From the IMG/VR virus record IMGVR_UViG_2703718816_000014, positions 1 through 3,475 of that record: DNA of 3,475 nucleotides. The stretch is one strand, 5' to 3'. Origin of the DNA: a virus (taxonomy: Duplodnaviria; Heunggongvirae; Uroviricota; Caudoviricetes). Each line of letters begins with the position of its first letter. Within the stretch, counting starts at the first letter, position 1. This document shows positions 1,594 through 2,965 of this stretch, in pieces. The notes under the pieces were generated by a model. The model saw only the letters and a program-made list of their open reading frames with translations. It ran no database searches and had not been told where the DNA came from. A program made the position numbers and the translations under genes.

Positions 1594-1728
1594 TCATCCA
1601 CGGCAGTGGCACCACACGTCAAACATTCGTTTCACAACTTCACGGCAGTAGAAGCCGTCAACATCACGGGTCAGGTCGTAGCGATTGTCGAATGTGTTGC
1701 GAACCCAGAACTCAAAAGCCGTATGCAT
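1594..1728 (-). CDS. Hypothetical small protein, 44 aa (MHTAFEFWVRNTFDNRYDLTRDVDGFYCREVVKRMFDVWCHCRG); absent from ORF track because under 60 aa
   Basis: Hand translation of the minus strand. ATG at 1728..1726 is preceded by GGAGG (1739..1735) with a 6-nt spacer and lies 3 nt after the stop of the upstream 80-aa ORF. Its TGA at 1596..1594 is 18 nt before the xis start. It fills an otherwise unexplained gap in a tightly packed operon. No family recognised. Confidence 0.45.
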   Translation of the reverse strand: MHTAFEFWVRNTFDNRYDLTRDVDGFYCREVVKRMFDVWCHCRG

Positions 1729-1731
1729 GTA

Positions 1732-1974
1732 TCACCTCCGTTGCATTGCGCGTAATTTTTTCAGGTGCTTTTCCTGCTCAGTGTCCGCGAGAATTTTGCG
1801 GTACTCCTGGTGGTCAATATGTTCGAACAGGTTGTTGAATTCAGTGATGCGTACCCGCCCGGAGCGTCCGTCCATCCTCAGGAAGAATACCGAGTGAACA
1901 GTACTGCGAGTAATTTTTACCGGATAGCCAGCGCTATCCGTGTATATTTGCCCACTCTGAATAAGTGCGAACAT
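1732..1974 (-). CDS. Hypothetical prophage protein, 80 aa from ATG at 1974 (ORF-track version starts at TTG 2007, 91 aa)
   Basis: Minus-strand ORF. First ATG at 1974..1972 is preceded by GGGGA with a 7-nt spacer and begins 4 nt after the stop of the 27-aa ORF. The TTG at 2007 is less likely because that stretch is used in another frame by the 27-aa ORF. Stop TGA at 1734..1732. No family recognised. Confidence 0.6.
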   Translation of the reverse strand: MFALIQSGQIYTDSAGYPVKITRSTVHSVFFLRMDGRSGRVRITEFNNLFEHIDHQEYRKILADTEQEKHLKKLRAMQRR

Positions 1975-1978
1975 GTGG

Positions 1979-2062
1979 TTATCCCCAGCGGCAAATTGCA
2001 AAAACAATCAGAGCGATTGATATTGCAATGCCAACAATTGCAAATGCTTCAGGCCAGCTCAT
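1979..2062 (-). CDS. Hypothetical 27-aa hydrophobic single-pass membrane micropeptide ([27 protein letters not shown]); absent from ORF track
   Basis: Hand translation. ATG at 2062..2060 overlaps the TGA stop (2061..2059) of the upstream Ea22-like ORF as ATGA. GGAG lies 8 nt upstream. Residues 6-24 form an uninterrupted hydrophobic stretch flanked by E5 and R25. Stop TAA at 1981..1979, 4 nt before the ATG of the next ORF. Confidence 0.4.
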   Translation of the reverse strand: MSWPEAFAIVGIAISIALIVFAICRWG

Positions 2063-2523
2063 TTATTGTTCTCCAGTGGTAGTAAATCTGGCACTGTTAC
2101 GCCAAACAATGCTGCCAGCGCACGATAGTTCTGCTCACTGTGATAGCGGCCTTTACAGCGAACCAGTTTTTCCGCAGCGGATTTGATTGTTTCCAGTATT
2201 GCTATGCGCTTCTCTGATGTTTCAAGTAACGCTTGCTTATCACGTAGCGCTTCTTCCAGTTCAGTAACATGGCATTCACTATCAATAAGGTTGTTCTTTG
2301 CAGCTTCCAACTCAACACGCAGCTTCCCAACCGTAAGCGCAATATCCTCGTTCTCCTGGTCGCGGCGTTTGATGTATTGCTGGTTTCTTTCCCGTTCATC
2401 CAGCAGTGCCAGCACAATCGATGGTTTTACCAGCTCATGGAAAAGGTCCGAGTCAAATCCCCAGTCGTCATACATTGCCTTCTCTGCCGCCTCACGCAGT
2501 GCCTGGTAATTAATTTCGCTCAC
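2059..2523 (-). CDS. Coiled-coil prophage protein, probably ead/Ea22-like family; 154 aa from GTG at 2523 (ORF-track version starts 7 codons earlier at GTG 2544)
   Basis: Minus-strand ORF. AAGGAGG (2536..2530) followed by a 6-nt spacer and GTG at 2523..2521 gives the N-terminus (M)[31 protein letters not shown], which I recall as typical of Ea22-like proteins in lambdoid prophages. The central region is heptad-like and charge-rich ([35 protein letters not shown]). Its position between xis and the recombination/early-left region matches lambda ea22. Family name is from memory, not a search. Confidence 0.72.
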
Positions 2524-2687
2524 TGGTTGCCTCCTTTGTGCCACATCGCATTCAGATATTTGTTTTGATTCACTGACGGAAAAGAATTTCTCTTAAGCAA
2601 TTCCTCTATCGATGGCATTGGCTTTACGCGTTGGCGAATAATCATTTCTGCCGGAAGAATGCCGGGATTGTATGCAAGTCCTCTCAT
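2520..2687 (-). CDS. Hypothetical small basic protein, 55 aa ([55 protein letters not shown]); absent from ORF track
   Basis: Hand translation. ATG at 2687..2685 overlaps the TGA stop (2686..2684) of the upstream 93-aa ORF as ATGA, with GGAGAG 6 nt upstream. Its own TGA (2522..2520) overlaps the GTG start (2523..2521) of the Ea22-like ORF as GTGA. This double coupling is hard to explain unless it is translated. Confidence 0.5.
2530..2536 (-). promoter_or_regulatory. Shine-Dalgarno sequence (AAGGAGG) for the Ea22-like gene, supporting the GTG start at 2523
   Basis: Plus-strand CCTCCTT at 2530..2536 reads AAGGAGG on the minus strand, 6 nt upstream of GTG 2523..2521. It lies inside the 3' end of the 55-aa ORF, consistent with coupled translation. 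Confidence 0.65.
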
Positions 2688-2965
2688 GATTTACTCTCCA
2701 CGAACTGGTCAATAGCCATGCTAAGTGACACACCTAAAGTCTCGATATGCTGCTGAATATCCTGTAGCGTCTGCGCCTGAGATAACAGGATTTCACGGTT
2801 GCATAACTCTTTAACCAGATGCTCAAACTTGCTGTAATAACCGATACGACTTAGTGTTTCTTTCCCTGCATTCTCGCCTTCTTTGATAATTCCTCTTTCG
2901 CTAAGAATCAGATCGTGTTTGGTTCCGGTAATAACGTATTTTCCGAGGTCGATGTTTAGCTTCAT
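2684..2965 (-). CDS. Hypothetical prophage protein, 93 aa
   Basis: Minus-strand ORF with ATG at 2965..2963 and GGAG 8-9 nt upstream. Same strand as the rest of the operon and its stop overlaps the start of the next ORF. No family recognised from sequence alone. Confidence 0.7.

Follow-up and report, generated by a model that had tools for sequence, protein, structure and literature searches.

In lambdoid phages, the exo-xis region is expressed early, is dispensable and affects the decision between lysis and lysogeny (PMC3824215, PMC7093339, PMC10834534). One of its products, Ea22, promotes lysogeny and forms a tetramer with a mosaic C-terminal domain (PMC7093339, PMC10834534, PMC3824215). We analysed a 3,475-nucleotide (nt) stretch of Caudoviricetes DNA (IMG/VR record IMGVR_UViG_2703718816_000014, positions 1 to 3,475; hereafter the window), which carries on its minus strand, at 1594..2965, six head-to-tail open reading frames (ORFs) of 93, 55, 154, 27, 80 and 44 amino acids (aa). 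The layout of the lambda left arm (exo-bet, small ORFs, ea22, ea8.5, xis, int) is matched by the allele of this locus that is free of the insertion sequence (IS) found in the window. With frames intact and junctions conserved in their relatives, all six ORFs behave as genes. The fourth, of only 27 codons, belongs on the evidence of sequence comparison to a well-supported and widespread gene family that has not been catalogued. By the distribution of their relatives, the six genes form a rare mosaic of three widespread modules rather than one unit.

Conservation of the 27-codon gene and layout of the chain

Relatives of the 27-aa ORF were sought by tblastn on phages, by degenerate DNA pattern scans and by exact cluster look-ups. 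The degenerate pattern, which fixes only codons 3-6 and 23-26 and requires neither the start nor the stop codon, returned at least 120 viral loci, and tblastn located the ORF in some 95 phage records at 48-85% amino-acid identity, with 933W, VT1-Sakai, VT2-Sakai, BP-4795, Min27 and ArgO145 among them. Among the matches listed, about 125 copies all stop after codon 27 and 121 of them start with ATG or GTG; these copies comprise 57 distinct nt sequences and 38 distinct peptides. In the same matches, diversity is 0.40 at third codon positions vs 0.20 and 0.13 at the other two, the ratio of nonsynonymous to synonymous polymorphism (pN/pS) is 0.33 (bootstrap confidence interval (CI) 0.21-0.48), or 0.45 for codons 7-22, which the pattern leaves free, and the commonest peptide is encoded by 13 nt sequences, with third positions accounting for 12 of the 13 variable in-frame sites. 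In the two remaining sense frames the ratio exceeded 1. A ratio of 0.33 in one antisense frame was rejected as a sign of selection: it is the expected artefact of shared third positions, and that frame contains stops in some copies.

A second sample, anchored on the 80-aa gene, is free of ascertainment on the 27-aa ORF. There the ORF ends 4 nt before the 80-aa gene in all 80 loci and is intact in 79, with a pN/pS of 0.45 (CI 0.30-0.65). The sample also holds a variant ending LFRWG, so Cys24 of the peptide is not invariant. About 200 copies retain the length and the frame. Protein-anchored scanning of viral contigs, together with annotated phage records, supplied the relatives of the other genes. 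The sequence-only reading of this DNA, made from its letters without database searches, had proposed synonymous-biased substitution as a check on the smallest ORFs, and such a bias was found in each of them (pN/pS 0.36 for the 55-aa, 0.33-0.45 for the 27-aa and 0.25 for the 44-aa ORF).

The smallest ORFs, chiefly that of 27 codons, could in principle be no genes at all but spacer or recombination-boundary DNA, or a ramp for delivering ribosomes. Lambdoid mosaicism uses short conserved boundary sequences, and the 27-aa ORF lies exactly at module junctions with differing flanks; its 84 nt fall below the usual limits of gene callers, and it is unannotated in RefSeq records. Against this, diversity is concentrated at third positions, with bootstrap upper bounds of pN/pS no higher than 0.65, whereas the other sense frames exceed 1. 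The start, the length of 27 codons and the stop were no part of the search pattern and are nevertheless preserved, and the predicted helix, W3/W26 and G11 survive amino-acid replacements. A ramp is further contradicted by several contexts in which the 27-aa ORF is the last one before a hairpin-like sequence. We therefore consider a non-genic origin highly improbable, and take the 27-codon ORF as a gene in what follows.

When the pattern was applied to one genome per species, all real copies came from Escherichia and Shigella, apart from those on three tiny contigs. These three, labelled 'Xanthomonas pisi' (L135, 431 bp), 'Acinetobacter idrijaensis' (L147, 369 bp) and 'Segatella copri' metagenome-assembled genome (L130, 1780 bp), each carry a copy of the type found in Shiga-toxin (Stx) phages of E. 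coli and probably reflect contamination or mis-binning. As a negative control, the 20 chance matches to the pattern in other phyla all lack a start, a stop and a hydrophobic run. Blastn detected the ORF in 1436 or more of the 5426 complete E. coli genomes (at least 26%), the median number of copies being two and the highest seven.

Searches of Pfam, NCBIfam, PHROGs and PADLOC yielded nothing significant for the peptide. The ORF is not annotated in any of the nine annotated records inspected, and the annotation pipeline PGAP skips it in the chromosome of E. coli OkiPb01678 (L002), which carries the IS-free allele. Some submitter pipelines deposited the commoner variants as a 'hypothetical' or 'bacteriophage' protein; the window's own variant was not found in a collection of 15 billion sequences. 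Literature searches with the peptide strings returned irrelevant matches only, and the strings do not occur in the supplements of the Sakai ribosome-profiling study PMC5597208. For all six products, sequence searches of NCBIfam, PADLOC, Rfam and PDB gave nothing meaningful. The sequence-only reading had listed the 55-, 27- and 44-aa ORFs as likely to be overlooked. This proved right for the 27-aa ORF only: two of the three are already catalogued, because both the 55- and the 44-aa gene carry a PGAP annotation in the identical allele, and both belong to families.

Re-reading the minus strand reproduced exactly the six ORFs and all five junctions that had been translated by hand in that reading. 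The first three junctions are 4-nt overlaps of stop and start, namely ATGA at 2687..2684 (93 to 55 aa), GTGA at 2523..2520 (55 to 154 aa) and ATGA at 2062..2059 (154 to 27 aa); they are followed by gaps of 4 nt (CCAC, 27 to 80 aa) and 3 nt (TAC, 80 to 44 aa). The ORFs sum to 1377 nt, which less 12 overlapped and plus 7 gap positions gives the 1372-nt span, so that 1365 of 1372 bases (99.5%) are coding. Five of the six starts are preceded by GGAG at a distance of 7-9 nt. GGAG or GAGG stands 5-10 nt before five of the six starts, or seven of eight if xis and int are included; on the same strand the motif occupies 4.8% of positions and accompanies only 9 of 111 ATG/GTG codons. The earlier claim was of a Shine-Dalgarno (SD)-like motif at both gapped junctions; the 44-aa gene has GGAGG 6 nt upstream of its start, and the 80-aa gene has only GGGGA.

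A mechanical ORF list sets earlier starts for two of the ORFs (GTG at 2544 and TTG at 2007). We prefer the shorter starts, as the sequence-only reading did, because of homology: lambda ea22 begins at the homologous GTG-AGC-GAA-ATT, and the relatives of the 80-aa DUF4222 protein all begin MFALIQ. The packing extends beyond the six, as xis begins 18 nt after the stop of the 44-aa gene and int after 33 nt more, and the genes upstream are just as tightly packed in the IS-free allele. Simple scans predicted no sigma-70-like promoter and no intrinsic terminator inside 1594..2965 on the minus strand, and Rfam gave no match at an E of 1 or better within the window. The geometry of the junctions suggests that the six genes are translationally coupled.

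Predicted membrane product and flanks of the 27-codon gene

The 27-aa peptides follow the pattern M-[STN]-W-P-[ED]-A...RWG and consist of a single hydrophobic helix, with a mean Kyte-Doolittle hydropathy of 2.1-2.9 over residues 6-24. The peptide has Trp near both ends (W3, W26), an acidic N-terminus, Arg25 and a conserved face formed by G11, A13, A15 and A17; the hydrophobic helix, W3/W26 and G11 are retained despite amino-acid replacements among the copies. With no more than 50 aa, one hydrophobic helix of bilayer length and conservation as a protein, it has the features of the small membrane proteins. The positive-inside rule for membrane topology and the occurrence of small-xxx-small motifs in helix packing form the background to the following two assignments. 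The 27-aa product is probably a single-pass inner-membrane protein with its N-terminus out and its C-terminus in, and it probably acts by packing against a membrane protein of the host or the phage.

Homology around the ORF ends at its start and stop codons. Upstream stand at least five unrelated families, among them DUF551 proteins (ending ...PEPPQEVNQ), a 114-aa family, L0139 of 933W and Ea22-like proteins, and among the matches listed the ATGA overlap with the upstream gene is present in 113 of 125 copies. Downstream, the same matches show at least ten contexts, including mokW/hokW (37 loci), DUF4222 (26), a 34-aa hydrophobic ORF (17) and hairpin-like sequences. Two apparent fusions were rejected. 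A membrane-anchored DUF551 fusion, suggested by a cluster with 121- and 185-aa proteins, dissolved on inspection, since these proteins end ...PEPPQEVNQ without the peptide and are upstream neighbours; likewise, 'DDWPEAF' variants resembling read-through fusions are broken copies with 1-nt deletions in codon 2.

The 34-aa ORF, MSDDISLAMEGALAVIAVVGVYCLVVFLMDRLGN, is a second unannotated hydrophobic micro-ORF, found directly behind the 27-aa gene in 17 of the loci listed (L011 at about 10476..10580 and 16 viral loci). It has a relative in L044 and no PHROG match. In 933W (L003) the 27-aa gene lies at 2501..2584, followed by 2676..2950; it is overlapped through ATGA with L0139 and is unannotated in AF125520, NC_000924 and Stx2 II. 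In Stx2 II (L316, 201..950, minus strand) GenBank has a 250-aa ORF 'C38' antisense to L0139 and the 27-aa gene, a call that is probably spurious.

Size and hydrophobicity would also fit a type I toxin of the Hok, Ibs or ShoB kind, or a Mok-like leader gating the next gene, and in 37 of the 125 viral loci listed, 933W included, mokW/hokW-sokW lies 153 nt downstream of the ORF. Such toxins have their own tightly repressed promoter and leader, whereas 113 of the 125 listed copies are joined to the upstream gene. Nor did Rfam reveal an antisense RNA family in the window, and the downstream contexts are many, or even absent, without co-variation with hok. Conservation at the amino-acid level argues against a pure leader role. 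We regard a toxin or leader as improbable, and return to the small membrane protein as the preferred interpretation.

Beyond this, we tentatively propose, with confidence that falls a little short of even, a fuller account of the 27-codon family. It would be an unrecognised translated family of minimal single-pass inner-membrane proteins in lambdoid prophages of Escherichia and Shigella, including 933W and Sakai VT1/VT2. Its members would be made early after induction or infection and would pack, helix against helix, with a membrane protein of the host or the phage. In this way they would influence the outcome of infection, for instance through exclusion, through membrane energetics or through when lysis and toxin release occur. 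The family would have been overlooked because its 84 nt lie below gene-caller limits and because neither lambda nor the K-12 prophage regions checked contain it.

Operon position, partner genes and the IS3-family insertion

Over positions 1..3115 the window agrees at 100% identity with two chromosomes from bovine strains of E. coli (NZ_AP042495.1, NZ_AP042676.1), both of them IS-free at this locus. The IS-free allele of OkiPb01678 (L002) shows, on one strand, N, kil, RecT, a Gp157-family gene, a 104-aa gene, the six ORFs, xisR and int. The region thus has two features of a lambdoid exo-xis or 'ea' region: in the IS-free allele it lies between recombination genes and xis-int on the early-left strand, and one of its small ORFs belongs to the ea22 family. 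We have considerable confidence that the region belongs to a lambdoid prophage at the yecE site and makes up the distal, exo-xis/ea part of its leftward early (pL-type) operon, which is the best overall explanation of the data. That reading accords with the earlier impression of a phage early or accessory operon, as the genes lie between RecT/Gp157 and xis-int, after N and kil. Gene order, the N gene and the absence of predicted internal promoters and terminators point to early transcription from pL under N antitermination; from the same features we infer that the genes are dispensable for plaque formation. The features of the window are collected in Table 1.

Table 1. Features of the 3,475-nt window, in order of position
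Feature	Position	Strand	Evidence
Tyrosine integrase, prophage end	1..1287	-	Pfam Arm-DNA-bind_2 + Phage_integrase; annotated in L002
Excisionase, xisR type, DUF1233	1321..1575	-	Pfam E 2e-29, phrog_539; annotated in L002
44-aa gene, 3 nt past 80-aa stop	1594..1728	-	phrog_3871 E 1e-30; PGAP WP_044809728.1
80-aa gene, DUF4222 (PF13973), 4 nt past 27-aa stop	1732..1974	-	Pfam 51.7 bits vs cut-off 27, E 6e-14
27-aa gene, predicted single-transmembrane micro-protein	1979..2062	-	Conserved ORF; ATG overlaps Ea22-like stop (ATGA)
154-aa Ea22-like gene, GTG start	2059..2523	-	Pfam Ead_Ea22 (PF13935) E 3e-24, residues 2-111
55-aa gene, DUF2737 (PF10930)	2520..2687	-	Pfam E 2e-29, phrog_1117 E 5e-35; PGAP in L002
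93-aa gene, DUF5405 (PF17399) / phrog_154	2684..2965	-	Pfam 25.6 bits vs cut-off 21.6; phrog_154 E 2e-31
3' remnant of 104-aa hypothetical gene (WP_000753554.1), IS-interrupted	2982..3115	-	Maps to L002 5820..6134
IS3-family element end (orfB 3' part + terminal repeat)	3116..3475	-	Pfam rve_3, rve_2, rve

A host DUF72 (yecE-type) gene has its annotated start within the prophage, sharing 17 nt with the 3' end of the integrase gene (window 1..17, L002 9099..9115), and the prophage therefore provides the 5' end of the host gene at the attachment site.

The sequence-only reading could assign a function to none of the six products from sequence, and our searches had the same outcome. The 93-aa gene was intact in all 83 relatives, each time with the 55-aa gene next via ATGA, and its pN/pS is 0.075. 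The predicted fold of its product, a four-strand meander with two helices, matches DUF5405 phage proteins with Foldseek TM scores of 0.76-0.86. The phrog_154 label 'replication initiation protein' was set aside, as the product showed no likeness to a known initiator in sequence (PDB) or structure searches. The 55-aa product reaches 101.5 bits against the DUF2737 profile (cut-off 25), covering profile positions 1-51 of 53. Its relatives are 54 or 55 aa long and always stand behind the 93-aa gene (80 of 80 loci), and their stop overlaps the start (ATGA or GTGA) of whatever gene comes next; pN/pS is 0.36.

The 154-aa product shares 69% identity with residues 1-102 of lambda Ea22 in a BLASTP alignment that runs from residue 1, with a homologous GTG start preceded 6 nt upstream by AGGAGG. 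The N-terminus and the coiled coil are present, and the protein ends 42 residues past the coiled coil; the folded C-terminal domain of functional lambda and Stx Ea22 is not present in it. The counterpart of these final 42 residues (2059..2190) lies in the middle of a 378-aa Ea22-like protein in L258. At the junction with the 27-aa gene, a deletion or recombination event looks to have removed the C-terminal domain and yet remade the ATGA overlap. The truncated form may or may not retain the pro-lysogenic activity that is reported for full-length Ea22. Matches of its coiled coil to PPR proteins were dismissed as low-complexity noise.

The 80-aa gene, annotated by PGAP in the identical allele like the 93-aa gene, is intact in 105 of 107 relatives, and a 44- or 48-aa gene follows 3 nt behind in 104 of 106; pN/pS is 0.23. 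Its product is predicted to fold into a Tudor/SH3-like barrel with a long C-terminal helix. As a lead from the structural model, the barrel may resemble domains that bind RNA polymerase (Tudor; the C-terminus of UvrD/PcrA, CarD and the Mfd RID). The 44-aa relatives are 44 or 48 aa long (pN/pS 0.25), and the peptide contains Cys and His. One natural protein of 93 aa (P0115) is an in-frame fusion of the N-terminal DUF4222 barrel (residues 1-52) to a protein of the 44/48-aa family. It arose by deletion over the 3-nt junction and is known from a single cluster on two contigs.

The modular nature of the chain is evident from its relatives. The 93- and 55-aa genes occur together in 80 of 80 loci and the block from the 27-aa gene through the 80- and 44-aa genes to xis-int in 76 of 80; parts of the chain occur in 2811 of 5426 complete E. 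coli genomes, and the contiguous six-gene chain, at 80% or more of the query, in only two. The whole chain was in no phage record searched. Conservation of the same set and order in related prophages, which had been put forward as a check, was thus not borne out, as the modules assort independently. Given the rarity of the exact arrangement, the six are not selected for as a group.

These modules also bear on the proposal, likewise made in the sequence-only reading, that the cluster is a concerted island of defence or anti-defence (superinfection exclusion, anti-restriction). Lambdoid early-left accessory regions do carry ral, gam, abc and sieB. However, PADLOC gave no match for any of the six products (the best E was 0.017, on the Ea22-like coiled coil), no known anti-restriction family was matched in Pfam, PHROGs or NCBIfam, and the three modules do not co-occur as a set. 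We give such an island only a slim chance, and continue with the exo-xis reading.

In that reading, induction or infection would set off an N-antiterminated early-left transcript running through the recombination genes and the six small genes into xis and int. The six genes would be translated from this one polycistronic RNA, with five SD motifs buried in the preceding gene. With three starts placed across the stop of the gene before and two set 3-4 nt behind it, ribosomes could re-initiate on the next gene, in a chain that would leave almost no untranslated RNA. The products would be small, non-essential modulators of the host or of lysis-lysogeny development. Among them, the 93-aa protein would contribute a widespread phage fold, the 55-aa protein a DUF2737 peptide, the 154-aa protein a truncated Ea22, the 80-aa protein a Tudor-like barrel and the 44-aa protein a Cys/His peptide; the 27-aa product would be an inner-membrane micro-protein that packs against a membrane protein through its small-residue face, with W3 and W26 as an aromatic belt.

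Several observations weigh against this account. An IS3-family element lies about 150 nt upstream of the 93-aa gene and could weaken or replace phage-driven transcription. PGAP calls the Ea22-like gene a pseudogene ('incomplete, missing C-terminus'), the DUF5405 product has no informative fold match in Foldseek, and the small-barrel fold to which DUF4222 shows its Tudor-like match is a very common one. The rarity of the exact order (two of 5426 genomes) counts likewise, as do frame-shifted copies of the 27-aa gene beside intact neighbours, which were named beforehand as a sign that would speak against the micro-ORFs. Such copies do exist, in about four of some 200 (L076 at about 891, L115 at about 11520, L130 at 1603, and L162), three with a 1-nt deletion in codon 2 and one with a frameshift in the first half.

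The insertion element deserves separate consideration, since this prophage arm could be decaying, a silent relic in its present strain from which nothing is expressed or functional. E. coli often carries cryptic prophages, the gene directly upstream is interrupted by the IS3-family insertion, and the Ea22-like protein has lost its C-terminal domain. The element has 99.7% identity to copies annotated as 'IS3 family transposase', its terminal repeat reads TGAACCGCCCCG..., and its insertion point lies in the 104-aa gene. Opposed to decay, the window preserves every one of the six frames intact, and xis and int as well. The element has the orientation of the operon, and its end contains a promoter-like site (TTCACA-17-GAAAAT, 3156..3128, minus strand) that points into it. 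N-modified polymerase reads through terminators, and the IS-free allele retains the complete early-left arm. A silent relic is unlikely in our judgement, though it deserves an appreciable minority of the weight. Expression from the phage early promoter in the source strain is uncertain, given the IS upstream.

Significance and comparison with known systems

Considered as an operon, the locus is textbook lambdoid biology that calls for no new concept. Five of the six genes fall into families that are catalogued but of unknown function. The value of the locus lies in annotation and in one candidate gene, a 27-residue peptide under purifying selection that is unannotated, and often multicopy, in at least 26% of complete E. 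coli genomes, as well as in the reference genomes of clinically important Stx phages. Since accessory regions of this kind are reported to shift the balance of lysis and lysogeny, a phenotype of the 27-aa, DUF4222 or 44-aa gene could bear on prophage induction and toxin release. The ATGA junction with an embedded SD motif also offers a usable signature for recovering genes of fewer than 30 codons lost to length cut-offs.

The nearest described counterpart is the exo-xis region of lambda and Stx phages (orf60a, orf63, orf61, orf73, ea22, ea8.5), which likewise lies between recombination genes and xis-int on the leftward early strand and is densely filled with non-essential small ORFs, including an Ea22 homologue with the homologous GTG start (PMC3824215, PMC7093339). 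Unlike in lambda, no exo-xis gene of lambda other than Ea22 is present here, and the Ea22 of the window is devoid of the C-terminal domain. Conversely, searches of the lambda left arm and of five K-12 prophages (CPS-53, Rac, DLP12, e14, Qin) turned up none of the 93-, 55-, 27-, 80- and 44-aa families, which is probably the reason that these five small families have gone unstudied. A second relationship connects the 93- and 55-aa genes to genes 24 and 23 of Sf6 and to ORFs of HK140 and HK446, with 96-97% DNA identity and the same ATGA junction. There, in Sf6 (genes 22-24), HK140 and HK446, which represent P22-like and HK-type lambdoid phages, other genes follow the pair, whereas the 27-80-44-xis-int block of the window comes from another lineage, of Stx/yecE type.

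For the 27-aa product two classes of small protein invite comparison. With Hok/Gef toxins (hokW-sokW of 933W), its frequent neighbours, it shares shortness, hydrophobicity and carriage by phages; it differs from them in having half the length of Hok and no homology, mok-like leader, antisense RNA or promoter of its own. The small inner-membrane proteins of E. coli, such as AcrZ, MgtS, KdpF, CydX and MgrB, form a class catalogued in K-12. The 27-aa product resembles them in size class, in its one predicted helix with interfacial Trp, in a small-xxx-small face and in having been missed by annotation. Unlike these proteins, to which it has no sequence relationship, it is borne by phages and would be translated as a coupled gene at the end of an early operon.

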